64,000 nucleotides of DNA from Eledone cirrhosa (lineage: Eukaryota). Made by a program: the position numbers and the translations under genes. The first letter of the stretch is position 1. Each line of letters begins with the position of its first letter. The DNA lies in contig OZ024760.1 of the NCBI GenBank assembly GCA_964016885.1, positions 34,100,001-34,164,000 on the forward strand. The letters are read 5' to 3'. Below, in pieces: positions 35,728 through 63,058 of this stretch. The notes below the pieces were generated by a model. The model saw only the letters and a program-made list of their open reading frames with translations, did no database searches and was not told where the DNA came from.

Positions 35728-35883
35728 ATACTCGGATCTGTTTTAAACCCCAGTCCACATCTTGCTTCCGTCCTATCATTGACTCCACTCCAAGAATTAC
35801 AATAAACACAACCTGGGAAGTAATCCATCTTTTTGAACCCCGAACAATTAAAATAAAAAATTTTTTTTCCATAACATCTCAAC

Positions 35884-36531: not shown

Positions 36532-36575
36532 TAGTTTAGATTGAGAGAACAATCAGGCGGCGACAGTCTACTTAC

Positions 36576-36664
36576 CTGGAATAACCTTCATACATCCATT
36601 ATCGATATCAGCTTTATCAACAGCAAGCCACACAGTTATTACATCCCCGTCGACACCCCAATAC
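36576..36664 (-). CDS. PhyH-family dioxygenase, exon 3
   Basis: cag/GTAAGT boundaries, 89 nt. Encodes (R)YWGVDGDVITVWLAVDKADIDNGCMKVIP(G), the typical PhyH W-x-A-x-D...NGC...IPGSH motif. Confidence 0.93.
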
Positions 36665-36822
36665 CTGCAAAAACAAATTCAACAGGTTTTTTACAAAATC
36701 TTAACATTTTTTAAACACAATTCGTCACTTAAACACTTTTAACATGAAACCATTTAAAACTGCCCCTGGTTCTATGATACAAATCTATTTCTAAGCTGTC
36801 TGTTTTAAAGTGTATATACAGA

Positions 36823-37152
36823 GTGAAGGTGCGTGGCTTTGTGGTTAGGGTATTCGGCTCACGATTGTAAGGTTGTGAGTTCAACTCCCGACAGCGCGCT
36901 GTGTCCTTCAGCAAGAGACTTTATTTCACGTTACTCCAGTCCACTCAGCTGGTAAAACTGAGTTGGAAGGGCCAGCCTTGCCACATTATCTATAGTTACA
37001 AGGACCAGCCTTGCCACACTGATTCACGCTGAATCTCCCTGAGAACTATATCAAGGGTACACGTGTCTGTGGAATGTTCAGTTATTTGCACGTTAATTTC
37101 ATCTGTTGATCGTATCGACTGGAACACTCCTCGTCGTAACCGACGGGGTGCC
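36823..37152 (+). mobile_element. tRNA-derived SINE, family A
   Basis: A-box-like GTGGCTTTGTGGTTAGG, B-box-like GAGTTCAACTCC and core GTGTCCTTCAGCAAGAGACTTTATTTCACGTTACTCCAGTCCACTCAGCTGG. Related copies at ~41755-41830(-), ~44570-44895(-), ~46036-46310(-), ~47340-47470(+) and ~56481-56750(+). Confidence 0.8.
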
Positions 37153-37547
37153 TCTAATCTTTAGTATATATAGTATTTATCCATCATAGTTTTATGTAAG
37201 AACCTTTGTTACGTTATGTTCCAAACACCAGATTAATAATGGGACAATTAGTTATGTTACTAAATCACTCAAAATTATTTAGAAATCCTATATTAAGAAT
37301 ATAGGAACGAAAGAATAAGCAATGCCAATATCAGATCTGTCAACTCTCCCCGTTCGACGGGGAGATCTCCCACCCCACTTTGGAGTGGGTGAGAGATGTG
37401 AAAATGGGTATAGCTTTTATTATGTAAAATCTCCCCAGTTTGCCTAATTTCTCCCCGTTTTGGGGCACTTTTTTTCATGGTACTCCCCGTTTGGGTTTTC
37501 AGAGGTTGGCAGGTCTGCAATATTAAACAAATGTCAACTTCTCTTAC

Positions 37548-37764
37548 CTGATATCTTGATGCCAAGCAACGTATTGTTTAGCACCGTCTTTTCTAGAAGT
37601 GTCTTTCTCTGGATATTTGCAGATGAAACGAGAGTCCAACACGAAGATGTTATCTCCAAGAATGGTGCGGAGAGGATGTAAAACGTTCCGATGAGCAGCT
37701 AATTTCATCACCCAGGGAAACGTCGTGTGGACATTATGGAGAGAATATTGAGAGTTCTCTTTAC
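37548..37764 (-). CDS. PhyH-family dioxygenase, exon 2
   Basis: tttcag/GTAAG boundaries, 217 nt. Encodes GKENSQYSLHNVHTTFPWVMKLAAHRNVLHPLRTILGDNIFVLDSRFICKYP...YVAWHQDI(R), containing the H-x-D iron motif. Confidence 0.93.
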
Positions 37765-37939
37765 CTGAAAAAGGTATTTATTTATTCATTTAGATTTTTA
37801 ATTATTAAAGCAGTTAATATTCAGATGTTACCTGCTGGAACTACATAGGTGTGAGGCGAAATATCTGAAAGAAAAGACTGATACAGCTTGGTACCAGTCA
37901 TTTTATAACTTATATACACATTATATACACTATGTACAC

Positions 37940-37989
<50 letters not shown>

Positions 37990-38017
37990 ATCAAAAGATG
38001 GTTAAAGGAGTTCCATG

Positions 38018-38088
38018 TATTTTATTATGCGCATTTCAAAAACAAACATCATCATGCAATAATATTTGTGTTTTCATCAGATAAAACA
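38018..38088 (-). ncRNA. Type I hammerhead ribozyme motif (sense to PhyH pre-mRNA)
   Basis: Reverse complement of 38195-38265. Confidence 0.75.
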
Positions 38089-38194
38089 GGAGAACATGAT
38101 ATGAAGGCTAAAAAACACTTGTGGATAGTGCAGTTTTAAATCAACATCACTGCACTATCCACAAGTGTTTTTTAGCCTTCATATCATGTTCTCC

Positions 38195-38265
38195 TGTTTT
38201 ATCTGATGAAAACACAAATATTATTGCATGATGATGTTTGTTTTTGAAATGCGCATAATAAAATA
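38195..38265 (+). ncRNA. Type I hammerhead ribozyme motif
   Basis: TGTTTTAT-CTGATGA-AAA C ACAAATATT...ATGTTTGT T TTT-GAAA-TGCGCA-TA-ATAAAATA. Confidence 0.78.
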
Positions 38266-38386
38266 CATTGAACTCCTTTAACCATCTTTTGATCTTATAT
38301 TATGTATACTCCAGTCCTACAAACTGTAGAGTGCTTCTTATCCGATATCTGCATTGCTTTATTGTACTACAATAAAACTCACCTCC

Positions 38387-38417
<31 letters not shown>

Positions 38418-38609
38418 AAGAGTCGGGATCCTGACGGCTGAGCTCTTGCACACACATACATACACACACATACATACATATATATATAGTGGCTGCCCCT
38501 CGTTATCGAGTATGGCCATTGCACGAGAAGAAAAAAATAATAATAAAAATAATAATAATAACAACAATAATAATAACGACAACAACAACAACAACAATAA
38601 TAATATACA

Positions 38610-38720
<111 letters not shown>

Positions 38721-38728
38721 GATAGCAA

Positions 38729-40135
38729 TTAACAGCGCTGCGATCGAATGTGGTTTTTTAGCTCAGCCAATGATCTAAAATGTCTTGCACAGAGTTGGCA
38801 ACCAAAACATTCACTGGCTGTAGCCGGCTGTGGTTGGAGTTCATGTACTTTTGCATGTCGTTTGAGCCCTCCTGCTGATTTACATTCTCTACTACATGCT
38901 TGGTAAGCATGATGAGTAGCATCTCCAACAACAGCCTGGTAGTCAATCACTGATCTTACTTTATGACTGCGAAGATGACTTTCGAGTCCAGCTCTGCTTA
39001 GGCAGAGTCTCGCACAGACGCTGCATGTCAGCGCCATAGGAGGACCTTCGCCGTCTGGAAATGCAACAGTAATGCCCTTCCTCGCATCCCGCTTTACTTT
39101 CTCGTATGCGATTCGAGATGCCTCAAAGGCAACTTTCCTCTCATATACAGTCTTTCTCTATTTGTTACGATCAGCAGCAACATTTTCCCATGTATCAGCA
39201 GAGATGTTAGCGTCTTTCAAAAAGGCTTTCAACGAATCCTTATACCTCTTTTTTGGTTTATATGGAGGTCGTTTTCCTTTAACTAACTTTCCATAAAAGA
39301 GTTGTTTTGGTATTCTAGAATCCTTACCCTGGCAAGGTGACCACACCAACGGAATCTTTGCTTGAGCACAAAAGCTTCTATACTGTCACACAGAGAGCTT
39401 TCTAAAATCTCGACATCACTGATGTGGTCGCTCCAGTGAACGCCATGGATCCGTCTGAGACACATCTGATGGAAATGCTCCAATTGCTTAAGGTGGTGTT
39501 GATATGTGACCCAGGTCTCGCAGGCATAAAGAAGAGAAGAGAGTACACATGCCTTGTACACATTTACCATTGTCTTCTTGCATATGTCTCGCCGACCCCA
39601 GAGTCGCCTTTCTAGCTTTCCGAAAGCATCACTTGCTTTCCTTATCCTGAGTGAGATTTCATTATCAAGGTTGCTGGATTGGCAGTATCGGTAGAGGGTT
39701 GGACGCCATGCTTTCCAGCATAGTTACGTCCCTTTACGATCTGAGTTCAAATCCCGCCGAGGTTAACTTTGCCTTTCATCCTTACAGGGTCGATAAAATA
39801 AAGTACCAGTAATGCACTGGCCTTGTGCCAAAAGTAGAAACAATTATGAAGATTGCTGTATCGATTGACAGTGCTTCCCAGGTAGACAAACTGATCAACC
39901 ACTCCAAATCGTTTACCATACACATAGATATTTGGTTCACTGTACTGTTTACCAGGGGAAGGTTGGTACATGACGACGGTTTTCTTGAGACTGACAGTCA
40001 ACCCTAGGGCAGTGTAAGCATCAGAAAATGCATTCAAAATGTGCTGCAATAGCACTCTCTGTGTGTACTACAAGATCGCAATCATCTGCATACAAGAGGT
40101 CTCTTATGAGTGATGTAAATACTTTTGTTTTTTGC
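38729..40135 (-). mobile_element. 5'-truncated, frameshifted RTE-clade LINE (RT C-terminal half plus C2H2 tail)
   Basis: Fragments DLLYADDCDLV, GLTVSLKKTVVM, FVYLGS, VYKACVLSSLLYACETW, FHQMCLRRI, RWCGHLAR, RIPKQLFYG...KKRYKDSLK, then C-terminal CSVCARLCLSRAGLESHLRSH. Confidence 0.92.
39676..39842 (+). mobile_element. SINE, family B, inserted into the RTE LINE
   Basis: Contains the B-box GAGTTCAAATCC. Flanked by an imperfect 15-bp TSD: ATTATCAAGGTTGCT (39661-39675) and ATTATGAAGATTGCT (39843-39857). Same family at ~33748-33860 and 60466-60989. Confidence 0.85.
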
Positions 40136-40349
40136 AGCAAATATATATGTATGTATATATATATATATATATTGTTATATTTGGGGAGGGTCATGTTGTT
40201 ATAATATTGCCAGAAATATATAATAAAATACTCACAGAAGCGAAAACCAACCCAACACAAACAATGAGTGTGTTTGTTTCAACAGACGATTTCATATCAA
40301 AAACCTTGCAAAACAAATTCATCGCCATCACAGCCCAAACTTATAGATA

Positions 40350-40380
<31 letters not shown>

Positions 40381-40386
<6 letters not shown>

Positions 40387-40677
40387 AGAAATTAAAAGTT
40401 GGTTAAAAATGTTCCATATATTTTATTATGCGCATTTCGAAAACAACATCATCCTGGGACAAAAATTGTATCATGTTACCTTATTTTATCTGATGAGAAC
40501 ACAATGTTTGTCCCAGGATGATGTTGTTTTCGAAATGCGCATAATAAAATATATGGAACTTTTTTAACCATATTTTAATTTCTTCTTTAATATATACTCC
40601 AGTTCTACCAACTGTTGAGTGCTACTTATCGGATATATGCATAGTTTTATTGTTCTACAATATTACTCACCTTCTTC

Positions 40678-40680
<3 letters not shown>
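40381..40680. mobile_element. Second fold-back pLTR fragment, same family as 37983-38390
   Basis: 40381-40469 is inverted against 40501-40589. The tail is homologous to 38301-38390, and (TA)n lies on both sides. Confidence 0.78.
40482..40551 (+). ncRNA. Type I hammerhead ribozyme motif
   Basis: TATTTTAT-CTGATGA-GAA C ACAATG...TGTTGT T TTC-GAAA-TGCGCA-TA-ATAAAATA. Confidence 0.8.
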
Positions 40681-40719
<39 letters not shown>

Positions 40720-41377
40720 AAAAGTTATGAAACGAAAGGAGCTGTGTGGTTACTAAAAACAAGGTTTAGGATGGTGGTTAGGACGGAACAGGAGGAGAAA
40801 GGAAGAAAGGAGTTTCCATCGTCAGCTGTAAATGTATCCCGAACCGATGTTTCGGCGCTGAATTACAGGACATCGGTGTAGTTCGGGTGCGTCCGAGGCC
40901 TTTTATTAATCAAAAGACCTGGGGGAAAAGGAGACAGAAAGAGAGAAAAAAAAGGAGAGAGAAAAGGAAAGCGAGGGAAAGGAGGAAGAACAGGGGAGGG
41001 GGGGAGATGAGGAGCGAGGAAGAAGGGGAAACATAGTAAAGGAATAGAAGAAAAAAAAGTGAACAGATCCCATCGTGGGAAGACACAGGTGAAAGAAACA
41101 TGCAAAAAAGTAACCGTGGAAAAATAGGGAAAGTAAGTTGTGGCCAACCTGGGAGACTTTAGCCTGGTGGTCAGCTACGACTCAGAGCTGGTATAATCGT
41201 GCTGCCTCTCACATAGACAGGAGAAAGTGAGAGAGTGACACGGGCAACCAAAAGTGAGATAATCCAGAAGGGTTTTTTTTACGCCGGTGGTAAAAACGTG
41301 CCGCAAAGATTGCGGACAGAGAGGCCACCATGGCACGTGTAAACATGTCAACAATCAAAACCGAATGGATGGATAGA

Positions 41378-41444
<67 letters not shown>

Positions 41445-41650
41445 TAACAGATTAAAGTTTAAGCAAAGAATCGTTGCTTTCACCCTTAACGGGATCTTCT
41501 GAAACTAAAAAAGTCAATCTGTGAACGTAGAAGTAAATATTTAAAAAAACGTTGCAACCGAAGGAAGTTGCTCTACGGTTCTTATATATCTGATATATAT
41601 TTATCCTTATCGAGCCCTCTTTGGATTTTAGTCTTCAAATATATTATTAT

Positions 41651-41692
<42 letters not shown>

Positions 41693-41871
41693 GATGATGA
41701 TGATGATGATGATGATGAAGAGAAAGGCAATGACAGATACAGCTTGGCACTAGTGTCTTGTCCAGGAATCGAACTCATGTCCATACGATTGTAAGTCCAA
41801 TACCCTAACCACTAGGCCATGCTCCTTCACCAGCTGTAACAACAACAAGTATTTCTATGGAGGTTACTTAC

Positions 41872-42004
41872 CGATTTCTTCTTCCAATCCATTAAAGTTC
41901 TGCTGTAAGTCTTTGGCTTCAGTTTCAGTGAGAACCTGAAGTGCTGTGACGTAACCATTTCTGTTGAAGTCATCGTCGAGTTTTGATGAAACCTTGTCGG
42001 CCAT
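41872..42004 (-). CDS. PhyH-family dioxygenase, exon 1 (start)
   Basis: ATG at 42004. Encodes MADKVSSKLDDDFNRNGYVTALQVLTETEAKDLQQNFNGLEEEI(G), with the F-x-x-x-GY PhyH N-terminal motif and a GTAAGT donor. The four exons sum to 786 nt (261 aa plus stop) with consistent phases. Confidence 0.9.
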
Positions 42005-42024
42005 TACAAGTTATCGAACGATGC

Positions 42025-42680
42025 GATGGTTTGATGGTTGATGGTTTGATGATGTCGTCTGTGGGTTTGGTGGTTTGGTGGTTTATTTGATTGGTGGTTT
42101 TTGTCTGTGTTTAGTGGGTTGGTGGTTTGGTGGGTTGGTGGTTTGATGATGTCGTCTGTGGGTTTGGTGGTTTGGTGGTTTATTTGATTGGTGGTTTTTG
42201 TCTGTGCTTAGTGGGTTGGTGGTTTGGTGGTTTGGTGGTTTGATGATGTCGTCTGTGGTTTGGTGGTTTGGTGGTTTATTTGATTGGTGGTTTTTGTCTG
42301 TGCTTAGTGGGTTGGTGGTTTGGTGGTTTGGTGGTTTGATGATGTCGTCTGTGGGTTTGGTGGTTTGGTGGTTTATTTGATTGGTGGTTTTTGTCTGTGC
42401 TTAGAGGGTTGGTGGTTTGGTGGTTTGGTGGTTTGATGATGTCGTCTGTGGGTTTGGTCGTTTGGTCGTTTATTGGATTGGCGGTTTTTGTCTGTGCTTA
42501 GTGGGTTGGTGGTTTGGTGGGTTGGTGGTTTGATGGTTTGGTGGTTTGATGAGGTCGTCTGTGGGTTTGGTGGTTTTTGTCTGTGGCTGGTGGTTTCGTG
42601 GTTTGGTGGTTAGTGGGTTGGTGGGTTGGCGGGTTGGTGGGTGATGTTTTGTGTCTGTTAGATTGATGGTTTGATGGTTG
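42025..42680. repeat. GGTTT/GGTGGTTT-rich compound repeat with ~90-100-bp higher-order units
   Basis: Recurring GATGATGTCGTCTGTGGGTTTGGTGGTTTGGTGGTTTATTTGATTGGTGGTTTTTGTCTGTGCTTAGTGG. It starts about 20 nt upstream of the PhyH ATG. Confidence 0.9.
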
Positions 42681-42686
42681 TATACA

Positions 42687-42752
42687 AACTGACTTTGGAG
42701 TGATTCTTATGACAGCCGAATATATATAAGCGTGGGAAGATCCAAAACTAAG

Positions 42753-42818
<66 letters not shown>

Positions 42819-42931
42819 GAATGGGCGTACGTACACACATACTTACACTCACACACGTGTTTGTAAATACCTATATTGACATATGTGACTAATTGAGATC
42901 ATGTGACCATGTGACTATATGACCACGTGAC
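42687..42931 (-). promoter_or_regulatory. Candidate PhyH core promoter with upstream E-box cluster
   Basis: Minus-strand TATATATA (42721-42728) lies ~30 nt before an Inr-like TCAGTT (42687-42692). kB-like GGGAAGATCC at 42734-42743. CACGTG/CATGTG boxes at 42854, 42900, 42908 and 42924. Motif matches only. Confidence 0.35.
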
Positions 42932-43062
42932 TCTGTTTCCGTGAGTGTTGAGTGTTGTTTAGTCTAACACCCGAACTTGTTTGGATATTAAACTGCAAAA
43001 AAATAATTAAAAAATGAAAAAAAAAGAATAAAGTTTTACTGGATAAGGAAGATAGCAGGAAA

Positions 43063-44502
<1,440 letters not shown>

Positions 44503-45086
44503 ATATGGTACACCAACTAGAGAGAAATAAGAGAGAAAATATGAGTGGTAGTAGTTGTTGTTGTTGTTGACGGACCTCCGTCTGTTGCAACGACAAGTGT
44601 TTTAGTTGTCCAGTTCTCAGGGAGATTCATTGTGATAGAGTGTTTGACAAGGCTGAACATACCACAGCTACGTGTACTCCACAACGTAGTTCTCAGGGAG
44701 ACTCAGTGTGATAGAGTGTGTGTCAAGGCTGAGCATACCACAACCACGTGTACTCACAACGTAGTTTTCAATTACGGAAATAACTCATTTTTCCCCAGCT
44801 CAGATGACTGGGGCAACATAAACAAAAAAGTGTCTTGCTTAAGGACCCAATGTGCCACCAGGAATCAAACTCACATCTTTACGATCGTGAGCTGAACACA
44901 GAGGCGTAACTAGGGTGTGGCAAGCATGGCACGTGCCATGAGCGCCACATGGACTAGGAGCACGTTCTATTAAAGTCAAATAAACCTCGTCAGAGAGTAA
45001 AAACAGAAACTCCTTCAGATGTATGATCTGTCTCTATCATGGGTGAACACTATGGTGACTGGGTCATTAAACTATTTATATAAATT

Positions 45087-45580
45087 ACTAGCAATGGTAC
45101 CCGGCATTGCACGGGATAAGGTATTTTGGAACGCGGGCCGCCAACAGACGTAATCGTGGAAAAACTGCATGCCTGGACAATATGTAAAGAAAATAAACCG
45201 AATACTCTGATGGCTGGATAATCTTTAAGATTTTCCTCGATGAAGCAGAAAAAATGCAGGTTTTCACCTAGGGGATCAAGAAAATGCATAATATGCTTTG
45301 AAATTTCGGGAAAATCGGCTAGACGTAACGCCTCAAAAAAGCCCTAAAAAGCTGAAAAAATGAAGTTTCTCACCTAATGCGGGCCCTAGGCCATAAAGAA
45401 AGTTGGATTTTCTTTGCTCACGGTATGAAGAAGAGACTGAGTAATACATAGTTACAATTTCAAGGAAATCGGTCTGACAACGCCTCAAAAAAAACCCTAA
45501 AAAGCTGGGGAAAAACGCAGTTTTTCACCTAATGTGGGCTCTAGGGGATCAAAAAGTTGAATTCTTTTCCCTAGTCTCTG
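45087..45580 (+). mobile_element. Helentron/HINE-like non-autonomous element fragment
   Basis: Terminus ACTAGC...ACCCGGCATTGCACGGG and internal ~170-bp subrepeats (AACGCCTCAAAAAA..CCCTAAAAAGCTG). A possible related 3' part lies at ~60235-60420. Confidence 0.45.
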
Positions 45581-46729
45581 GCTGAACATCTTAACCACTG
45601 AGCCACGAGGAAAGCAACTGTGAAGCGGTGTAGGGTAGGATCAGTCAGAGTTACTTCCTCTTGTCACCTGAGCATGTCATCTAAAGAAGTTTATCAGATT
45701 ATATTCCAAGTTAAAAGATGCTTTGTTTAATTTGATAACAACCAGTCGTGTCTACCAGATGTCTAAGGAGATTGCTAAGACGTTTGCACTGTTCCAGGAC
45801 ATTCTTTCATTCTTTCGTTCCTTTATTCCTGTTATTGTTTTCAGTCATTAAACTGCAGCCATGCTGGAGCAACCACAGTCTTAACTCTTAACGTCCGGTA
45901 CCGCATGAAACCACATTAGCAAGTCAGCAAGATTAGAAAAGTTGAAAAAATCCCTATGAGTGCACCACGTTAATAATCTATGTCTTCTGAAACTACATAG
46001 ATGTGAATAATCATTTTTTTGTTGTTTTTAATTCCTTTGGCTCCCCGTGGGGTATTCTAAAGTCAGAAGGCTGGTTAGGCCCGTACTTATCCCAGTTTCA
46101 TGGCATGAAGCGACTGAGAGTACAAGACTTCCACTGGACAGGACGCGAGTCCATCGCAGGGTTAAACCCCCAGCTATTGCTGGTACTCATTTTCAGCTAA
46201 GCACACTGGAGCAACGTGAAATGAAGTGTTTTGCTAAAGAACACAACCCAGCCGAGGAATCAAACCCACTATATTATGATCGTAAGACCAACACTCTTAC
46301 CACTGGGCCACGTTTAAACCATTACAAAGGAAATTTTAACTTTGTATTAAATCATCATTACGTCTACGATGTCTTTGTTTATAATAGGTTCTCAACCGTC
46401 TTTAGAGATAGCTGTATAGAATTCCCTCTTATGACCGGCCTACATCTATAGGTCAGATTGACATCTTACTCCCTGCCCTTGTTCTACAGGCAAGTTCAGC
46501 CACCCCACCCCCACCCGCCGCTATGAAGGAATTTAACTGCGTTTACAAAATCTTTGACAATTCCTCCGATAAAAACAACTTTGAGAACTGTTTGACACGA
46601 CACTACTGCGACGCTCTCATTGCATGCCCATATATGGAATTACTTCTTGATAAGTTCTGCCAGGCTACTGCCGTCCTAACAAAGCTGTCGAAACGGCCGA
46701 AGCTCATCTGTCGGGGTCCTGACTCTTTT

Positions 46730-46829
<100 letters not shown>

Positions 46830-46847
46830 GTGTGTCTGTGTATGTAT

Positions 46848-46880
<33 letters not shown>

Positions 46881-47614
46881 ATGTCTATGTAGAGGGAGAG
46901 GAAGAGAGAGAGAACAATAGGAAAAGTCTGGAGCCAAGAATAATGGATATTCAAGTGCAAAAGAAAAGAAATCGATAATGAGAGGAAAAAAATATATAAA
47001 AAGTGAGAAAGTCAATGATTCACGTCAGAATTTATTCCTGAATTTTATAAAAGAAACATTTTACATCCTTTTCCCCCAGAATATATTTATTATGATAATA
47101 ATAATAATAATTGATAAGGAAAACTAAATAGAAATATTTGTTGACAAAACCTGAAGTTGTTGCCGGAAAACAAATATCTATGATTGGATTTAATAAAAGA
47201 CAGAAGAACTCTGTCTTGGAGTTCATATTTTAGTAGAAGACCGCATCACATTGAAGAGTTGTTTCACCAATACTGGACAGGTAGACCATGAGTTTCTCAT
47301 TTACAAAGGTAATTGGACACTTTATGGGTGGTTTCATTTCCTTGGCTTTGTGCGATAGGTTCACAATCGTAAGGTCAGGAGTTCGATTCCCTGCACCGTT
47401 TGGTACGTTGAGTCCTTGAGCAAGACACTTTATTTCATGTTGCTCCAGTACACTCAGCTGGCAAACATGAGGTGCAGTATCACTGGTGCCAAGATGTTCA
47501 CTGTAATTCTTATCTGTAGGTACTCTGTAACAAACGGACATATGCTATATTTATGTGTAGATACTCTGTAACAAACGGAACATACACATTGTACTCTATA
47601 TTTCTTATCTGTAG

Positions 47615-47711
47615 GCCTCGTACAAGAAATGGAAGCTGTGCTGTTTATTTTCTACAAAACACCAGCCAAAGTATCTGTCAAATTTGGAAAATACTTCAAA
47701 ATGTACACATC
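47615..47711 (+). other. Candidate upstream exon of ACOD1 (5'UTR or N-terminal extension)
   Basis: tttcttatctgtag acceptor and GTAAGT donor. Spliced to the tgcag acceptor ending at 47955, it reads openly ASYKKWKLCCLFSTKHQPKYLSNLENTSKCTHHSSS into MLHTQ. Confidence 0.4.
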
Positions 47712-47966
47712 GTAAGTAAAGCCAAAATACTTTTATATCCATCACTATCACTATCATCATTATAACCATCATCATCATCATCATCATCATCGGCATCATC
47801 ATCATCACCCACTTCATCGTCGTTTTACGTACCTCGACATTTCTATGTCTGCCAGTAAAGACACTATAAACGTTTTAAATTAACAAACCTGTATTTTAGA
47901 TATTTCTTTCTTCTGAATCATTGCAGTTAACTCTAAAGAAACGTTATACTTGCAGACTCTTCATCG

Positions 47967-48469
47967 ATGTTACACACCCAAAGTGTTACCTCACTGTTTG
48001 CAGAACTCATCAGCAACTCAAACCTAAGCAATCTGTCAGAGATAGTACAGACAAGAAGCAAAAGGATGATTTTGGACACTTTAGGTGTCGGCATCCTTGG
48101 TTTTCACAGTGAAACAACAAAAACTGTAAATTCATGGGCTGAAAACCTCGGTTACTTCGAAATACACGAAAGCAGTGTAGGAAAACCCCCAAATGTGGTG
48201 GTATGGGGTAGTTCTAATAAAAGAGCTCCTATAGGCCTCGCTACTTACCTGAATGGAATCAGCGTCCATTCAATAGATTTTGATGACACCTGGCACCCAG
48301 CCACCCATCCAAGTGGACCTGTTTTACCTGCTGTTTTGTCATTGTCTGAGTATATGACCGGTTCTTTTCGGCCAACTTCAGACGAACTTTTGGTGGCCTA
48401 CAATATCGGAATCCAAACGCAGGGTCTCCTTCTACACAGTTCAACAAAGTCCAAAAATATCCCTGAAAG
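47967..48469 (+). CDS. ACOD1: Cis-aconitate decarboxylase (IRG1, MmgE/PrpD family), first main coding exon
   Basis: RSKRMILDTLGVG, NGISVHSIDFDDTWHPATHPSGPVLPA and LLVAYNIGIQTQG closely match vertebrate ACOD1 as recalled. The 3' boundary is inferred from phase and homology, and the donor reads TTAAGT. Confidence 0.92.
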
Positions 48470-48724
48470 TTAAGTAATATTTTCCTCGTCCTCCTTTTTT
48501 TCTTTGCTTTTTACTTTCATTGTTTCTTTCTTTTGTCTTCTTTTCCTTCTTTTTCCTCTTTTTTTCTTTGTAAATAATTTGTTACACCCTTAATTATATC
48601 AACCAACAATCCTACTTTACTTTATCCATGGTAAATTTCTACAGTTGGATGCCATTCCTAATGCAAACCACATTTACAGTGTGTGCTGGGTGCTTTTTAT
48701 CATGACTCCTTCATGACCACTTTA

Positions 48725-48887
<163 letters not shown>

Positions 48888-48910
48888 GTGTGTTTATATA
48901 TATAAATATA

Positions 48911-49929
<1,019 letters not shown>

Positions 49930-49990
49930 ATATATATATATATATTCATTCAAAATATTAACAAAAATAGAACTTCATTGTGATCAAGTA

Positions 49991-50057
49991 TATTTTATTA
50001 TACATATTTCAGAGGTACTGAGCTAACTTCAACAGTACGTCCTCATCAGATAAAATA
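49991..50057 (-). ncRNA. Type I hammerhead ribozyme motif in Penelope 3' pLTR
   Basis: Reverse complement of 54715-54781. Confidence 0.78.
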
Positions 50058-52024
50058 AGATGATGCATGACATACCCTAACTTAGTAGATGGTTAAGATC
50101 CAGTCATGGTAGTGAGTAAGATATGACAAAACTCAATAGTTATATACCTTAAGATTGATACATGAAAAAACTTACATATAATACATATAGTACAGAGGGT
50201 GCGTGTAAGAAAGCTTAAAAATACATAACAGTAATTTACATAACTGTTAGAGATTCAAATAATTATTTAAGAAAGAGGAAAGTAAAAAGACAGAGAGAAA
50301 ACATATGAGGGGAAAATATAGCTAGAAGAGGTATAGAGAGCAAAGGAAAAATTGATCAAGGAAAGGGAGACAAAGAGGACTAATTATAATTATAGGGAGG
50401 GATGTATAGTTATGTATGATATATATCCATACACAACTATACATTTGGGCATAGCTATGCGATAGAGTAAACTCAAATCATTGAATTATTGAATTATCTA
50501 GAAATATTCATCAATCTAAATCCTAAATATAACTGGGTGTAATCAATAAGGGTTAATTTCCTCAGTTAATTAGATATATATACTATCCAAATGTGTCCGG
50601 TTGACCGTTAACTTTCAAATCATTTAAGTTAGTTAAGAGTAATGAATTAATTAAAGTGTATAATATTTCAGGCTATAAAAGTTTATAAATATCTGTATTA
50701 ATATTAAAGTATACTATCATATTTAATTTATAAAATCATATTTTATGAATTCATATTTAAACTATTTGTGAACATGAGAGAGAAAACATGCTATTTTTCA
50801 TCTTGTCGAAGGTAAATCTTGATAATTTTATTATAATATATTTAATTATTATATTGAAGATATAATTAAAAAAAAAAATTTTAGATTAACAATTAGAATG
50901 CCTTAAAGCATCAAAAGGCCTTATAATTAAACTTAAAAAGTTTATTATTAAATTAGCTATATGCATTTGTCTAAATATAAACAAAGATTATATTGTGTAA
51001 AGATTAAGATGATACCTATCATTTATATATAACATAATATAATACAATAAATAAGTTACTGATAATATTGTTAAAAATTAAGGTTTTAGATCAATTATTA
51101 TAATAAGGTCACGTAACACATATATACTATAAATATACAAGTCAAACTTCTTGAATCATACGGATAATAATACGATTCAAAGTAAAATAATGAATTGTCT
51201 GCGATCTTAGATTTTCTTTATAAATTTATATAGTAGTGTAATGTGTCTGTAAACATGAGAAAGAGAAAGCCTAAGGATTTCATTGACCCGAAGGTAAGCC
51301 AAATTTAATTAAATTAAATTAAATAATAATCATTATATAACTTAGAAAATTTAAAAAGTATTTAGAGCATATTTAACGATTATAACACTAGAAAATCATT
51401 AAAGTATCCAAAGTACTTATCAATAATAATCGTTATATAACTTAGAGAGTTTAGAAAATATTTAGAAAGTCATTAAAGTATTTAAAGTACTTATAAATGT
51501 AATTAGAAGCATGTTATTATACTAGATATACGGATTTGTTCAAATATAAATAGAGTATTCAGATATTAGTGATCGATATACATATAATAAATAGTACAAT
51601 CATTGTTAGTAATGTTATAATTGAAGTTTTACATCAAGATAAGTGGAAAAAAAGATTGACGACTAGTATCGTGTGTGATGCATATACCGTAAATATATAT
51701 AAATAAAAATATATAAATCAAACTTCCTGAATCTTAAAACATACTCCAGATAAGTAAATATACAAAAACATAAATGCATGAATGATTTACGGTACATTAT
51801 AATTGTTAAGCGTATAAGCCATATATTAAAAAAATATATACAAGAATCCCAGTAAAAAATTAAATATATCTTAACAATCAAAAGGTATGCACATTCCTCA
51901 AGAGATCATGTTAACCAAAAATATGTTTATATACCTAAATAGGACCCTTTAATCTAACATTAATCATATCATAAAAGAATTAAAAGATAAAAATTATTAA
52001 AGTTTTATAATCTGTTATATCGTT

Positions 52025-52852
52025 TTAGGTACACAGTTGATAAGAGACATCAAAAATTAGAACGTGGTTATTTAGTGTTTTTTTCCTGACTTTTTGCGAG
52101 GCTTGGAATGTAGACAGAGCTTTATGAAGGCAGTTTGAGAATAATTCACTCTTTTTGTTAATTAAATTTTCACAATCAGTAATTATTAAAAGGGTCTCCA
52201 TAGTACAGAGGTTGCAGTTAGGTGATATTGACGAATTCAAATAAATTCTACTATTACATAACTTCGCCCAAGAAATCGAGTATTTTAAGTTTTTGTCTTT
52301 TAATGACCATATAAGTTGTGATAAAGAAGTCGAAGATTTCCTATTAGGATTCGAAAAAGTGCATTTGTGATTCGCAAATCTAGATTTAAATGTCGAAGAA
52401 GTTGCACCTATATAGTTGTATGTGATGTTATTTGCTTTTACTGTGCATTTATATACCAAATTGCAATCAAGACAGTTATTTTGCAGAGGGCAATCAGGTC
52501 TATTTCTACAATTACACTTCGATTTATTGTTATTACTATAAATTGTACTATTTACATTAGCATTATTAATATTCCGAAATCTTCTATTGATACTGTTACT
52601 GTTATTTCTAGTGTCAATATTGTTAGTGTTATTATATTCATTATCGTTAAATGTATGTTGATTTAGAATTCTACTATTTATTTTAGCGGTGTTTTGGGCC
52701 ATATTCATAGTTGTAGAATAAGAAAGCTTAATTGTGTGTCTGTTAAATACGGAACGGTATTTATGTTGAATGGAGAAAGATTTATCTAAAGCTTTAAAGA
52801 ATAGATTTGCGAGTGGAGTTTTTATTGCTACAGAAGCCGGGGGGCAAACCAT
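52025..52852 (-). pseudogene. Penelope linker plus GIY-YIG endonuclease remnant (RT missing)
   Basis: FNRHTIKLSYS, CNCRNRPDCPLQNNC, VYKC...YIGATSSTFKSRFANH, CNLCTME...LINKKSELFSNCLH. A 1-nt frameshift falls at the upstream IWFAPP motif (~52840). Confidence 0.9.
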
Positions 52853-54714
52853 ATAACTGATTTAGTTCTGATTTTTTTTCCCCGATTTATTTCCGGTAGT
52901 GGTGTTTGTATTAACATTTTTGGAATCTCGTTTATACATGTTAATCTTATTAGGATTATAATTCAAATTATTATCCATATATTCTATATTATTTTTATAA
53001 CCTGCCTTTCGTTACTATAAGTTACTGATAATTTTTAACAATATTATCAGTAACTTATTTATTGTATTATATTATGTTATATATAAATGATAGGTATCAT
53101 CTTAATCTTTACACAATATAATCTTTGTTTATATTTAGACAAATGCATATAGCTAATTTAATAATAAACTTTTTAAGTTTAATTATAAGGCCTTTTGATG
53201 CTTTAAGGCATTCTAATTGTTAATCTAAAATTTTTTTTTTTAATTATATCTTCAATATAATAATTAAATATATTATAATAAAATTATCAAGATTTACCTT
53301 CGACAAGATGAAAAATAGCATGTTTTCTCTCTCATGTTCACAAATAGTTTAAATATGAATTCATAAAATATGATTTTATAAATTAAATATGATAGTATAC
53401 TTTAATATTAATACAGATATTTATAAACTTTTATAGCCTGAAATATTATACACTTTAATTAATTCATTACTCTTAACTAACTTAAATGATTTGAAAGTTA
53501 ACGGTCAACCGGACACATTTGGATAGTATATATAACTAATTAACTGAGGAAATTAACCCTTATTGATTACACCCAGTTATATTTAGGATTTAGATTGATG
53601 AATATTTCTAGATAATTCAATAATTCAATGATTTGAGTTTACTCTATCGCATAGCTATGCCCCAATGTATAGTTGTGTATGGATATATATCATACATAAC
53701 TATACATCCCTCCCTATAATTATAATTAGTCCTCTTTGTCTCCCTTTCCTTGATCAATTTTTCCTTTGCTCTCTATACCTCTTCTAGCTATATTTTCCCC
53801 TCATATGTTTTCTCTCTGTCTTTTTACTTTTTCTTTCTTAAATAATTATTTGAATCTCTAACAGTTATGTAAATTACTGTTATGTATTTTTAAGCTTTCT
53901 TTTTTAATTATATCTTCAATATAATAATTAAATATATTATAATAAAATTATCAAGATTTACCTTCGACAAGATGAAAAATAGCATGTTTTCTCTCTCATG
54001 TTCACAAATAGTTTAAATATGAATTCATAAAATATGATTTTATAAATTAAATATGATAGTATACTTTAATATTAATACAGATATTTATAAACTTTTATAG
54101 CCTGAAATATTATACACATTAATTAATTCATTACTCTTAACTAACTTAAATGATTTGAAAGTTAACGGTCAACCGGACACATTTGGATAGTATATATAAC
54201 TAATTAACTGAGGAAATTAACCCTTATTGATTACACCCAGTTATATTTAGCATTTAGATTGATAATTATTTCTAAATAATTCAATAATTAAATGATATGA
54301 GTTTACTCTATCGCATAGCTATGCCCAAATGTATAGTTGTGTATGGATATATATCATACATAACTATACATCCCTCCCTATAATTATAATTATTCCTCTT
54401 TGTCTCCCTTTCCTTGATCAATTATCCTTTGCTCTCTATACCTCTTCTAGCTATATCTTCCCCTCATATGTTTTCTCTCTGTCTTTTTTCTTTCCTCTTT
54501 CTTCAATAATTATTTGAATCTCTAACAGTTATGTAAATTACTGTTATGTATTTTTAAGCTTTCTTACACGCACCCTCTGTACTATATGTATTATATGTAA
54601 GTTTTTTCATGTATCAATCTTAAGGTATATAACTATTGAGTTTTGTCATATCTTACTCACTACCATGACTGGATCTTAACCATCTACTAAGTCAGGGTAT
54701 GTCATGCATCATCT

Positions 54715-54781
54715 TATTTTATCTGATGAGGACGTACTGTTGAAGTTAGCTCAGTACCTCTGAAATATGTATAATAAAATA
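54715..54781 (+). ncRNA. Type I hammerhead ribozyme motif (sense to ACOD1 pre-mRNA)
   Basis: TATTTTAT-CTGATGA-GGA C GTACTG ttgaagttagct CAGTAC C TCT-GAAA-TATGTA-TA-ATAAAATA. Confidence 0.8.
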
Positions 54782-54920
54782 TACTTGATCACAATGAAGT
54801 TCTATTTTTGTTAATATTTTGAACGAATATTAATAACTCCGGAAAACCATAACTGTTGAGTGCTTCCAATCTATTGTAAAACTAATTCTTTGATTTATTC
54901 ATCGAACCTCGTTTAACCTT

Positions 54921-55040
<120 letters not shown>

Positions 55041-55196
55041 GTGTGTGTGTGTGTGTTTATATATAAATATATATACATCACCACTATTATAACTCTTGAC
55101 AAAAAAAGAAAAGGGAGAGTACTCCCAAAATAATTATTGGTGTTTAAAATATTTTCAGATATAGATGTCAATGTGAAACATTTTCTTTTATTTCAG

Positions 55197-55408
55197 GTTT
55201 CACCCGCCAGCTGTGGTTGGAGTGATGGGATCAGCTGCTGCTGCTGCAAGATTGCTGCAGCTGGGTCCATGCAAAACAAAACATGCGCTAGCCATTGCAG
55301 CCTCTTTTGCTGGTGCACCAATGGCAAATGCTGGCACACAGTGCAAACCGTTACACGTAGGAAAATCTGCACGTTTTGGCCTGGAGGCTGCTTTAATGGC
55401 AGACAAAG
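55197..55408 (+). CDS. ACOD1: Cis-aconitate decarboxylase, second coding exon
   Basis: tttcag/GTAAGA boundaries, 212 nt. Encodes (R)FHPPAVVGVMGSAAAAARLL...AGAPMANAGTQCKPLHVGKSARFGLEAALMADK(G). Confidence 0.95.
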
Positions 55409-56069
55409 GTAAGAGATAGAACATAGCAGCCTTACTGACTTTTTCAGGTTCAAAATTGTTTTATTGTTAGGAAGGGCATCCAGCCATAGAAGTCAGTGTC
55501 GGATTTAGGACAAATGAAGCCCTGTGCTAGTTAAGTTATGAGGCTCCATACTTGGGCCCTGAAGGGGGTAGGCCCGGTAGGCCTACACAGACAGTCATCA
55601 GGAAGTTGGGCCCCTTCATGGCCAAGGGGACCCTGTACTTAAGCACACCTGAACACAGGGGTGAATCCAGCACTGATAGAAGTCCTGCGAAAATGACTTG
55701 CATGGGTTTGACATGTTGTCCTGAACTGAGATCAGACTAAATATGTGACCACAGCCTGCTTGTACAGTCCATTTTTAGATTGCTTTCTACAGCTCAATGC
55801 CCTTCCTAACACCAACCACCTTATAGTATTCACTGGGGGCATTTTATTGTATCACAAACACCAGCGCAACCACAGTTTGTTAATTTAAATGGTCGTAGTA
55901 TCTTTACTGGTGATCAAATCATTGTGAAAATTGGCTGTAAACTAAAGTAGAGATTTTAATATTTAATGTAATGCAGTCATAATGTTGTTTTATACATTTC
56001 AAGAATGTCTTGTTAATGTGGTTTTGTGGCGTACAGGGCATTAAGAGTTAAAGTTGTTTGTACTTACAG

Positions 56070-56401
56070 GAATGGAAGGGAATGAAAACATTCTTGACAC
56101 AGTGTCTGGTTTTGGTGTATTTTTTGAAGACTATTCCCCAAAAAAGTTGTTAGATGTTGCTCTAAACAACCAACAGTATATTCTTCACGATCAAGATGTC
56201 GCCATCAAACGATTCCCAGCTCATTTAGGCATGCATTGGGCTATTGATGCAGCTATGGAAGCCCGACAACAAATGACTGGGGTATTCAGCTCTGAAATAC
56301 CATATAAAGAAATCAAAGCTATCCAAATTATTGCCCCCACATCAAAATATATTGACAGACCATTTCCAAAATCTCAGCATGAAGCAAGACACTCATTTCA
56401 G
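56070..56401 (+). CDS. ACOD1: Cis-aconitate decarboxylase, third coding exon
   Basis: ttacag/GTGAGT boundaries, 332 nt. Encodes GMEGNENILD..GFG..QDVAIKRFPAHLGMHW...KYIDRPFPKSQHEARHSFQ. Confidence 0.95.
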
Positions 56402-57059
56402 GTGAGTTAATTAGTTAGATTTCTTAATTAACTTTTTAAATGATTTTAAAAGAAAATTGGTGTGTTAATTCAAATATCTAGTGGAGGCATGTGACCCAGT
56501 GGTAAGTGTGTTGGACATACAATCATTATGTCGTAGGTTCGATTCCTGGACTGGATTGCCTGTTGTGTTGTTGAGCAAAACATTTCATTTCATGTTGCTC
56601 CAGTATACTTAGCTGAAAATGAGTACCAGTAATAGCTTGGACTGGTGTCATCCTGTCCATGGGGGGGAGTCATGTACTCTCAGTCGCTTCATGCTATGAA
56701 ACCGGAATAAGCTCCAGCCTGATGATCCTTCTGGCTTAAGACGACTTCAGACTTTTTTTTTACACTTTACTGGACAGATTGTTGTAAAAATGTTAATAAA
56801 TTAGAGTAAAGACTTTAATATTTATTGTGATGCAGTCATTTTTTACAAAATGTTTCTTATGCAAGTTTGTTTATTAACTCTTAAAATCCTGTAAAGATTC
56901 AAAAGAAAATATCTAAAAATGGGTTAATTCAACTACTTATAGTATCTTTACTTATGGATAGATCATTGTCACCATCATCCCCCACTACCACTACCATCAT
57001 TACCACCTCCGTCATCATTATCATGAACAACATCATCTTCACCACAGTGTAGTGTGTAC

Positions 57060-57502
57060 ATTTTATTCTGAAACCAACGCTATCACTTTACAGAGCGTAC
57101 TGGGTGCATTATATGGTAGCAGCAACACTTCCTCTTTACAGAGTGTACTGGGTATATTTTATCATGGCACCAGCACTACCACTTTACAGAGTGTACTGGG
57201 TGTATTTTATCATGTCACCAACACTACCACTTTACAGAGTGGACTGGGTGTATTTTATCATAACACCAACACTATCACTTTACAGAGTATACTGGGTGTA
57301 TTTTATCATAACACCAACACTATCACTTTACAGAGTGTACTGGGTGTATTTTACCATGACACCAACACTACCACTTTACAGGGTGGACTGGGTGTATATT
57401 ATCATGGCACCAACACTACCACTTTACAGAGTGTACTGGGTGTATTTTATCATAACACCAACACTACTACTTTACAGAGTGTACTGGGTGTATTTTATGA
57501 TG
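57060..57502. repeat. 48-bp intronic minisatellite (~9 copies)
   Basis: Unit ACTTTACAGAGTGTACTGGGTGTATTTTATCATAACACCAACACTACC. Single-copy relatives at ~48665-48725 and ~55810-55870. Confidence 0.9.
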
Positions 57503-57605
57503 GTGCAGTTATTATATAGATTTATGTCTAAATAAGATCCACCATAATTTCAATGTCTCTTTTTTGTTTTAGCTTTTTTCAACAACTTTCTGTTTGTTAT
57601 CTTTA

Positions 57606-57831
57606 TTAACTTTTAATATCCTGTAATGACTGAGCAGAAAATATCTAAAAATAGGCCTGTTAATTTAAATATTTATAGTATTTTCACTGGTGGACAGGTC
57701 ATTGGGAAAATTTACTGTAAACTAAAGTCTTTACTTTAATTTTCAAGGCAATGCAGTCATAGTGCTGTTTTATAATATTCAAAATTGTCGTTGCTAATGC
57801 TGTTTTATGTGGTACAGGATATTAAGTGTTG
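57606..57831. mobile_element. MITE with TTAA-type termini
   Basis: TTAACTTTTAATATCCTGTA...TACAGGATATTAAGTGTT. Related pieces at ~55877-56051, ~56765-56960 and ~45880-46010(-). Confidence 0.6.
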
Positions 57832-57850
57832 CTATCAACTTTTATTGTAG

Positions 57851-58222
57851 TTCAATGTTGCTTCGACATTACTTGACGGAACAATGAGCCCAGAGAGTTA
57901 CACTTCGGGACATCACTCCAGACCAAAGTTGAAGACTCTTCTAGAAAAATGTCATTTATTTAGAAAAAAAGACAATATAGCAAACTTTAACAGAATGTAT
58001 GTTGAAGTAATTATTACCTTAACTAATAACAAGGTGTATAGAGGTCGTTGTGATACACCTTATGGCCATTGGCGGAAGCCTTTGTCAGACATTGATGTCC
58101 AGCGGAAATTTCTCAGTAACACAAAATCTCTTCCGACAGATGTTTCTGAAGCCATCATTCACTCAGTGGTGGGTTCATCAAAAAACTCAATAGAAGAAAT
58201 TTTAACCTTGTTGAAATACTGA
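57851..58222 (+). CDS. ACOD1: Cis-aconitate decarboxylase, last coding exon
   Basis: tttattgtag acceptor, phase 0. Encodes FNVASTLLDG...DNIANFNRMYVEV...CDTPYGHWRKPLS...KFLSN...LLKY-TGA. Total CDS is 1419 nt (472 aa). Confidence 0.95.
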   Translation, partial: FNVASTLLDGTMSPESYTSGHHSRPKLKTLLEKCHLFRKKDNIANFNRMYVEVIITLTNNKVYRGRCDTPYGHWRKPLSDIDVQRKFLSNTKSLPTDVSEAIIHSVVGSSKNSIEEILTLLKY

Positions 58223-58274
58223 TTTAGTTAACAATGCAACATCAACATTTGAGGATGTGTATTTTAAACCTTTA

Positions 58275-58483
58275 TCATTTACATTACTCTACATTTACTA
58301 TTATATTTTCACGGTAAAGACCTTACCTCACATAATATCTCACTTAACATTTACAATTACTCTATATATACCATTATATTTTCACGGTAAAGGCCTTACC
58401 TCACATAATATCTCACTTAACATTTACATTACTCTATATATACTATTATATTTTCACGGTAAAGGCTTTATCTCACATAATAT
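58275..58483. repeat. ~72-bp tandem triplication just 3' of the ACOD1 stop
   Basis: TTATATTTTCACGGTAAAG(G/A)CCTTACCTCACATAATATC occurs three times. Confidence 0.8.
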
Positions 58484-58518
58484 CGAATCTATGAGATTTT
58501 GATATTATTTATTTTGAG

Positions 58519-59405
58519 AACAACAGCCCGAATTACGCCGTACAGTGTTTGGAAACCATCGTCGCCTTTTTGTTCAACACTGACACAGGAACGATGTACT
58601 AGTTTCAAGCTTATTAGCTATCGTCAGCATCGTATACCTTTCTGTCAGATGATTGAACGTTTGAAAGTATATACTTTCCTTATGCATATTAACGGCTGAG
58701 CAGCCTAATTTTCATATCGAGTGAGTTAGTCGGCGAACCGAAATCGAATACCTTTCTGTCAGATGATTGAACGTTTGGTTGCCAAACACTGTACGGCGTA
58801 ATTCGGGCTGTTTGTTTACAAACAAACCGAACATTATAATAAACGTTCGGTAAACCCATACGTGCATATATATATATATATATGTACATGTATGTTTATA
58901 TATACATACTACTGTACGTCTGTATACATATATGTATGTACGTGTACATACTTACATTTAAGTATCAACCGTACTAAGAGTGAGAAATGAAATTTCGTTT
59001 CATCTTTTTCCATTTATCGTTTTCGGTTCGCCCGGCCGACTAACTCACTCGATATCCAACTTAGGCTGCTCAGCCGTTAATATGCATAAGGAAAGTATAT
59101 ACTTTCAAACGTTCAATCATCTGACAGAAAGGTATACGTTGCTGACGATAGCTAATAAGCTTGAAACTAGTGCATCGTTCCTGTGTCAGTGTTGAAAAAA
59201 AAAGAAAAAGGCGACGATGGTTGCCAAACACTGTACGGCGTAATTCGGGCTGTTTGTTTACAAACAAACCGAACATTATAATAAATGTTCGGTAAACCGA
59301 TACGTGCATATATATATATATATATATATATGTGTACATGTATATATATACATACTACTGTACGTCTGTATACATATATGTATGTACGTGTACATACTTA
59401 CATTT
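58519..59405. repeat. Composite inverted plus direct duplication of a dispersed repeat
   Basis: 58519-58742 is inverted against ~59023-59255. ~58778-58958 is repeated directly at ~59218-59405. Homologous sequence also occurs at ~30030-30190 and ~60000-60035. Confidence 0.8.
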
Positions 59406-59475
59406 ATTATTATTATATATATATATATACACAATGATATTAAATAAATGGAAACTATATTTATAAAACCATATT

Positions 59476-59538
59476 TATTTTATTATATATATTTCAAGGG
59501 TACCAAAACACATTGGTACGCTTTCCTCAGATAAAATA
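59476..59538 (-). ncRNA. Type I hammerhead ribozyme motif
   Basis: Minus strand: TATTTTAT-CTGAGGA-AAG C GTACCAA tgtgtt TTGGTAC C CTT-GAAA-TATATA-TA-ATAAAATA. Confidence 0.78.
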
Positions 59539-60465
59539 CAAAATTTGTTTTATAAATAGAGACATACTCAGAAAAATCATACCTTATCAGTTTATTCTCT
59601 GGATAGTGGAAATGTATTAGGGATGTTTCAAACTTATGGGTGAATATGCAAATGAATATGTAAATAATTGAAAAATAACCGTTTATTTAAACGACTATGG
59701 AGAGAGAGAAGAGAGAAGATAAGAAGGACAAAATAGTGAGAGAGAGAGATAGAAGAAGGAAAAAAGCTCATATAATGTTAATTTGAAGGAAATATATTCG
59801 AACAATTGTCTATGTATATATTTAAGTATGTGTATTTATATTAAAGGGATATTTTACGATTATTAGTTGTTTAAAATTTGTTTATAATATAATATTTTTC
59901 TTCTGTTATAAGTAGATAAATAAATGAATAAATAAATAAATAAATAAATAAATAGATGGGTATATCATGTTATAGATAATTGTTCTAATGAGTTTGTATT
60001 TTATAAACGTTCGGTAAACCCAGACGTGCATATATATAAAGAATCGCTGCTTTCACCCTTAACGGGATCTTCTGAAACTAAACAAATCAATCTGTGAACG
60101 CAGAAGTAAATATTTCGAAAAACGTTGCAACCGAAGGAAAACAGGAAGACGATACTTTGGTTCGTGAAGACGTTTTCGTGCAGTCAGTCAGACATACAGA
60201 CAGATATTACAAGGGCGCGACGTTATAGCTATGTATCTATCTAAAAAGACAGACTTAATGCGGTCCCTAGGGCATAGAAAATTTGAAATATGTTTTGCTC
60301 AAAACACTCACAGGACCATAAGTATTACATATGTAAAGTTTGAAAAAACTCGGTTGGGTGGTTCTCGAGGTTTAGGGAGACAGATAGACAGACATTCTCT
60401 GTTTTAGATTTTAGATAATTACAATTATAATTTAATGAGTTATCTCCCTTGAAAGTTTCATTATT

Positions 60466-62935: not shown

Positions 62936-63058
62936 ATGATTTAAATTAATGTTATATATTTAACCAGATCCCAGTGTGGACTGTCCATCATAAACTTTAT
63001 CTCGGAATATGTTGTTAAGGTATGTTCCAAACACCAGCTCATTCATGTTTACTAAATG

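Follow-up and report, generated by a model that had tools for sequence, protein, structure and literature searches.

A probably functional TT-AG intron, likely derived from an ancestral GT donor, in the ACOD1 gene of Eledone cirrhosa

No base of spliceosomal introns is under tighter constraint than the G at position +1, and a T in its place is normally scored as loss of function. In the 64,000-nucleotide stretch of Eledone cirrhosa DNA analysed here (the window), an intron of ACOD1, the gene for cis-aconitate decarboxylase, lacks this G: the upstream exon ends with ...AAT ATC CCT GAA AG at 48469, the intron begins with TTAAGTAATA and ends with ...TTTCTTTTATTTCAG, and the downstream exon continues with GTTTCACCCG from 55197. 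The original prediction left three options for this site, namely, a rare functional TT donor, a recent null or hypomorphic allele, and an error of the consensus. The question, then, is which of these holds and how such a donor could be recognized. We consider it most probable (about 0.85) that ACOD1 contains a fixed, functional U2-type TT-AG intron that was derived from an ancestral GT; the features concerned are collected in Table 1.

The ACOD1 exons matched the N- and C-terminal MmgE/PrpD domains of Pfam, and the top database match was the cis-aconitate decarboxylase of Octopus bimaculoides (82% over the exon and 81% over 470 residues). In a 19-row tree, the window protein grouped with two Octopus proteins and that of Argonauta (99/96), and protein P0126 adjoined this group (98/99). 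All eight active-site residues of the human enzyme, as given in PMC6789909, have counterparts in the window protein, in keeping with an ACOD1/IRG1 cis-aconitate decarboxylase; the equivalents of Asp93, Thr97, and His103 lie in the exon upstream of the intron, which ends in phase 2 with the AG of an arginine codon, and the His159 equivalent stands two codons past the intron. From its homology, the protein would be expected to produce itaconate from cis-aconitate. When the TT join was assumed, the exons at 47967-48469, 55197-55408, 56070-56401, and 57851-58222 gave 472 codons with one terminal stop, and the three other introns found were all GT-AG. The remainder of the gene is thus intact, as had been claimed, and a further upstream exon can be added (47615-47711), which has a canonical AG in front and GTAAGT behind; the start-codon exon lies farther upstream than 47615 and was not located. 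The host gene is the same as that described for molluscs as paleo-IRG1 or cis-aconitate decarboxylase (bioRxiv 10.1101/2022.06.17.496652, PMC6789909), with 81% identity to the Octopus proteins, and its recent local duplication, described below, is like that reported in the same sources for oyster and lamprey IRG1. The main text of bioRxiv 10.1101/2022.06.17.496652 mentions neither a cephalopod nor an intron feature. As a side observation, in the Octopus vulgaris protein CAI9739276.1 (P0122), a repeated ten-residue unit replaces the normal C-terminus, which is probably a repeat insertion or an annotation fault.

Table 1. Features of the ACOD1 locus in window coordinates (a slash marks an exon-intron border)
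Feature	Position	Strand	Basis or remarks
Segmentally duplicated block	35773..64000, extending ~1.5 kb beyond the window	+	Second copy at G000:C21:24,241,557-24,262,183, where ACOD1 is intact and likewise has TT at the donor
Upstream coding exon of ACOD1 (N-terminal extension)	47615..47711	+	tblastn with the Octopus N-terminus matched it in the second copy; borders and open frame in the window
Exon 5' of the TT donor	47956..48469	+	MmgE_PrpD_N match; ACOD1 of O. bimaculoides, 82%; X4 contig match stops at 48469
Upstream in-frame competitor GTs	48344, 48350, 48449 (48344..48450)	+	Cost 42, 40, and 7 residues
Non-canonical donor, AAG/TTAAGTAAT	48467..48478	+	T at +1 is 48470; sequence, second copy, short-read contig
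Proposed TT-AG intron	48470..55196	+	6727 nt, against 1735 nt in the second copy
U-rich tract directly 3' of the donor, candidate intronic enhancer	48479..48578	+	65% T, 87% pyrimidine
Mariner/Mos1-like transposon remnant	48910..49800, approximate	-	HTH_48 match; gap in the copy-to-copy alignment (second copy without it)
Young high-copy mobile element with inverted arms, most of the intron	49935..54925, approximate	.	Coverage map
Candidate one-base exon (G at 54696) within the young element, CAG/G/GTATGT	54693..54702	+	Both copies
Strong canonical acceptor	55180..55196	+	CAG, 86% pyrimidine tract; reads TTTTCTTTTATTTCAG
Exon 3' of the TT intron	55197..55408	+	Starts G TTT CAC (Arg-Phe-His159 equivalent); has the Lys207 equivalent
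Coding exon with the Lys272, His277, and Tyr318 equivalents	56070..56401	+	
Final coding exon including the stop codon	57851..58222	+	

When four donors were tested against the acceptor at 55197, the TT join alone gave NIPERFHPP, the sequence of all four Octopus database proteins, and the prediction that a cut after 48469 is required was thereby confirmed. GTs flank the donor at -1/+1 (48469) and at +5/+6 (48474). Use of the one at 48469 is out of frame, as had been stated, and meets a stop 9 codons on; use of the one at 48474 retains the TAA. The in-frame GT at 48449, named earlier as the nearest rescue site, does cost 7 residues, but the list was incomplete, as in-frame GTs are also present at 48344 and 48350. 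The earlier view that A-to-I editing offers no remedy holds as well, since no slid register gains a canonical pair in that way, as reasoned from the sequence.

The absence of the +1 G at 48470 was upheld by the agreement of the window sequence, a short-read contig, and a second genomic copy. The short-read contig (897 nt, depth 12.6) comes from run X1, possibly made from the same sample as the assembly, and agrees with the window at every base of 47850-48684. A search of the assembly with the donor exon gave two matches among four candidates, both with TT. The second ACOD1 copy lies 10 Mb away, is 99% identical, and has an intact frame; 16 of its 1419 coding bases differ from the window (codon changes, 9 silent and 7 replacing), and in the upstream exon the T is kept among 6 differences. 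Over 48456-48486, AAG/TTAAGTAAT included, the two copies are identical. Since the short-read contig shows 0 differences and the second copy carries the same T, the T is not an assembly error.

The duplicated block measures ~21-29 kb. Its flanks are unrelated on both sides, and there is no N gap at its ends, so that the block looks like a true duplication; the same observations disfavour an uncollapsed haplotype as the origin of the second copy. The last exon of a PhyH-like neighbour gene is single-copy and sits beside the window's block, which makes the window the likely parent locus and the copy on G000:C21 the likely daughter. This PhyH-family gene (34800-42010, minus strand) is placed head-to-head with ACOD1, has a Pfam match for 34800-35279 only, and is duplicated by the block just in its 5' part; two likely exons of the gene at ~37544-37764 and ~41864-42010, which end in GTAAG, were chosen by eye and have no Pfam match. 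At the right end of the block, from 61500 to 64000 and onward, there is a tandem satellite with a 48-base period that may mark the breakpoint.

A check for a spliced join between 48469 and 55197 yielded one 968-nt contig, from run X4, that joins them with nothing between. Contig positions 1-452 lie on 48018-48469. On the second copy, positions 451-662 and 663-968 match the two following exons without a single difference or gap (518 nt); contig position 453 is 55197, as the match from position 451 takes in the two bases of the shared AG. The exon ends seen (48469 and 55195) are those predicted by the TT join, whereas the three GT joins predict 48471, 48475, or 48450 with 55197. The join restores R-F-H beside the His159 equivalent. 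Run X4 is public, contains 88 million letters, comes from sample S2 (DNA runs X1-X3 are of a different sample), and has no library type on record; it was taken as RNA-like from its small size, the lack of cover on unique intron sequence, and the two exact exon joins. The support for splicing is this one contig from one run, and contig depth says nothing of efficiency. In the upstream exon the contig shows 7 differences from the window, as against 6 for the second copy, and in the two downstream exons it has second-copy letters at all 7 sites that separate the copies. Because the contig has second-copy letters, the evidence for splicing concerns the second copy rather than the window's own. The RAD-seq runs X6 and X7 gave no coverage of the donor or of the acceptor exon. 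Of the options set out earlier, that of a rare functional TT donor is therefore favoured by a contig that joins 48469 to 55197 exactly.

The comparison with a sister species that had been proposed was made with organism B, a relative sequenced in a separate study (run X5), and revealed no change at the donor among the differences listed. A contig of organism B over 47925-48561 has 53 differences from the window, and among the 39 listed (47962-48479), none falls at 48451-48478. The T>G tally of organism B is two, one at 48450 and one shared with the repeat background of run X1, in which the gene contig had no differences and one T>G came from repeats, so that none is left for the donor. For the listed differences of two exons, with five codons around an indel pair excluded, dS was 0.30 and dN 0.033, a ratio of 0.11 (Fisher P = 4e-17). 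ACOD1 is under purifying selection (dN/dS of 0.11). The T at the donor is probably shared with organism B, at a dS of ~0.30, and predates the segmental duplication, so that the TT donor would be old. In organism B the GT at 48449 is destroyed, which leaves no near in-frame rescue there. The U-rich tract behind the donor can be aligned in organism B as far as 48561; no contig of organism B was found on the acceptor exon. Of the null or hypomorphic option, the recent-null part is made unlikely by a T that predates the duplication, is probably present in the relative, and lies in a gene under purifying selection; the hypomorphic part may still apply.

The position of the intron could be followed farther than its first base. 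Among short database proteins with a readable junction, 59 of 62 leave the enzyme sequence at this intron, and the residue at the junction is R in 59, K in 2, and S in 1. In a read-through frame, a final S would correspond to T or C at +1 and a final R to G or A. Three of the 62, the one with S (P0142, by visual judgement) included, are spliced models, and CGN codons likewise encode R; therefore, the junction residues show the shared intron position better than they show the +1 base. No octopod read-through frame was present among the 67 short proteins. A metagenome scan gave two fish-like loci with AG/GT at this intron position and no mollusc locus. The intron position is evidently old and common to other molluscs and vertebrates. 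In the Argonauta hians model GAB1610045.1 (P0002), 42 residues ending at this junction are absent, and the model reads LSL^FHPP; the gap is exactly the product of using the GT at 48344. This hints at a predictor that found no canonical donor; the gap is likely a mis-annotation and possibly a sign of a non-GT donor in Argonauta. The Octopus models are whole at the junction, which fits a GT donor or RNA-guided annotation alike.

The splicing machinery looks ordinary, given that all 30 of the U1 copies read (at least 42 U1 matches in the assembly) have ATACTTACCTG at the 5' end and that the assembly had 0 matches to the pattern with any other base opposite +1. A lineage with rewritten U1 and many non-GT donors was accordingly rejected; U1 is normal, and the other three ACOD1 introns are GT-AG. 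The U1 genes on G000:C2 and C1128 form tandem arrays with a period of ~2.67 kb; a few variant copies also occur, and the 5' end is normal throughout. The donor consensus of U12-type (minor) introns is RTATCCTT. A minor intron was likewise rejected, as the donor reads TTAAGTAATA; the site has the properties of a U2-type intron, being otherwise of consensus sequence, with a second GT at +5/+6 and an AG acceptor with a pyrimidine tract. The TT donor can form 8 of 11 pairs with U1, two GT donors of ACOD1 form 7 and 8, and five competing nearby GTs form 4 to 6; the GT at -1 (48469) has 4 of 11 pairs in register. Either value for the U-rich tract, 65% T or 87% pyrimidine, was attained in just 3 of the 3390 overlapping segments into which 30001-64000 was divided (the satellite half having been set aside), and two of these three are the donor tract itself. 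A TIA1-type enhancer is the natural guess for its role.

In the mechanism that we propose, the ordinary major spliceosome would cut directly before the T at 48470. U1 would pair at -2, -1, and +2 to +7, bridging a U-C mismatch at +1, and the second GT at +5/+6 would favour the +1 register, as in human reporters. The U-rich tract and the weakness of the nearby GT competitors would keep U1 at the TT donor, and the strong AG acceptor would complete the intron. A share of transcripts, cut one base early or retaining the intron, would run into a stop codon and be degraded; since a cut at -1 meets a stop 9 codons on, some transcript loss is predicted, and the TT site may lower enzyme yield.

Several other explanations for the same observations were weighed. 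An error of the assembly consensus, with G as the true base, has nothing in its favour beyond the rarity of TT donors and is practically negligible, because the X1 contig crosses the site with 0 differences and the second copy keeps its T although the exon has 6 other differences; this option of the original prediction is refuted. It is also very improbable that the individual that gave the RNA had a normal GT allele, with the TT copies of the assembly null or nearly so. Sample S2 is indeed not that of DNA runs X1-X3, and at least one letter of the X4 contig departs from the second copy in the upstream exon, but the contig equals the TT-bearing second copy over 518 nt, and such identity means that a G would require a back-mutation after the duplication. 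Moreover, just two copies were found in the assembly, both TT, with both frames intact and a dN/dS of 0.11 to organism B. A pseudogene or null allele was rejected on the same selection ratio, the intact frames, and the spliced contig. A donor that functions in the second copy only, the window copy with its longer, element-filled intron being silent or mis-spliced, is compatible with the preferred reading of a functional TT-AG intron, and we hold it to be somewhat unlikely. The sole spliced contig carries second-copy letters at all the distinguishing sites of two exons; a contig, however, follows a single path through variants and is evidence of presence rather than absence, the two copies do not differ in the donor region, and the window has an intact frame in what is apparently the parent locus.

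Other alternatives concern the route to one and the same message, as the joined mRNA does not differ between TT..AG, a slid GT..CA, and a route through a one-base exon. With an AG at either border, the intron boundaries can slide to GT..CA (48469-55195), and with the GT present at -1, this would give a canonical donor and a non-canonical acceptor. We regard this register as highly improbable: it has two wrong acceptor letters against one wrong donor letter, passes over a strong CAG one base on, and has a U1 pairing of 4 against 8 in the +1 register, and known cases in such a context have been interpreted as TT-AG in the reports cited (PMC4176328, PMC6280755). Alternatively, the GT at 48469 could be joined to the AG at 54694-54695, the G at 54696 be kept, and a second GT-AG intron (54697-55196) be removed. 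The site CAG/G/GTATGT occurs in both copies, and the second copy's 1735-nt intron contains no other of this kind; reporter constructs with TT sites are frequently cleaved at -1 (PMC6280755), and one-base exons exist, as in Arabidopsis APC11 (PMC4674806). Yet the motif is the ordinary sequence of the mobile element in which it lies, occurring in 24 of 28 other copies. The element (3497 candidates; inverted arms at ~49935-50983 and ~53126-54925) is young, with 38 other scored copies 94-98% identical, whereas the T is probably shared with organism B at a dS of 0.30; if organism B does carry the T, a working donor preceded the insertion of the element. Outside the element, the intron of the second copy has no AGGGT or AGGGC. 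Furthermore, the candidate has a weak pyrimidine tract (0.57), the -1 GT makes only its 4 of 11 pairs in register, and an equally good site arose in 6.8% of 5000 shuffles and any YAGGGT in 21%. A hidden micro-exon had been named as what could overturn the prediction; a frame-restoring canonical candidate does exist at 54696, but it sits in a young mobile element. It is improbable that a one-base exon supplied by this transposon rescues -1 cuts and yields some or all of the ACOD1 mRNA, thereby repairing a broken donor, and slightly more so that this is the main route. A functional TT-AG intron thus continues to be the reading that we prefer.

TT-AG introns are a described rare class, so that the ACOD1 intron adds a member and overturns nothing. 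Human FBXO9 (aAG TTAAGTAT) and ETV1 (aAG TTAAGTtg) contain natural U2-type TT-AG introns (PMC4176328, PMC6280755), and the donor AAG/TTAAGTAA is nearly identical to these, with GTs at -1/+1 and +5/+6 and a canonical AG acceptor. According to PMC6280755, accurate use of +1 in human reporters needs the second GT at +5/+6, TT ranks second among non-canonical donors in reporters, TIA1 sites by themselves left TT sites inactive, and the FBXO9 site is cut at both -1 and +1; the ETV1 TT-AG intron is described as constitutive in PMC4176328. In contrast to ETV1 and FBXO9, the ACOD1 intron belongs to a mollusc, occupies an old position with GT in the two outgroup loci read, splits a codon two residues before a catalytic His, and has an extreme U-rich tract behind the donor. 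FANCC c.165+1G>T (Hartmann et al. 2010, as cited in PMC6280755) is similar in its +1 G-to-T change and TTAAGTA context and in that correct mRNA is still made; however, the FANCC TT is a leaky disease allele, whereas the ACOD1 T stands in both gene copies and is probably shared by a relative, with the protein under purifying selection. The GA donor of Trema orientalis SYMRK (PMC10668435) is likewise a donor change that would look fatal to a conserved gene and yet proves functional, but it arose as GA from GC and is a local plant allele, whereas the ACOD1 donor is TT from GT at +1, apparently fixed and older. For the rival route, the one-base exons of Arabidopsis APC11 (PMC4674806) and Fusarium CYP621A (PMC12940212) are the model; the ACOD1 counterpart differs from them in sitting in a young mobile element and is a candidate by sequence only. 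In the literature covered, which was mainly open-access, neither this intron nor any cephalopod donor of its kind was found to be described, and the main text of PMC7072748 names neither octopus nor TT-AG.

This intron is distinguished by bringing together a spliced contig, two genomic copies, a probable occurrence in a second species, outgroups with GT, and an extreme U-rich tract, in a gene that may be dose sensitive. The working TT donors in the literature covered are human, and a fixed mollusc case with GT outgroups is a natural experiment on tolerance at +1, for which the near-perfect U1 pairing elsewhere, the GT at +5/+6, the U-rich tract, and the weak competitors are candidates. According to bioRxiv 10.1101/2022.06.17.496652, mollusc IRG1 needs no stimulus to be expressed, and itaconate can be harmful to the metabolism of the host itself; on this basis one may speculate that an inefficient donor could act as a throttle on ACOD1 output. 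Gene predictors restricted to GT or GC would mis-model ACOD1, and the Argonauta model lacks exactly the 42 residues whose loss would be expected from a predictor of this kind.

Other sequences in the window were noted in passing. Within the young element, a 278-codon frame on the minus strand (52025-52861) had no Pfam match at 0.01 and includes a stretch that resembles the GIY-YIG endonuclease of Penelope-like retroelements. A broken LINE-like remnant with C2H2 zinc fingers lies at 38729-40278 on the minus strand, and positions 1-29200 (~29 kb) are low-complexity satellite with a strong skew, which switches strand several times and gives rise to many spurious long frames.
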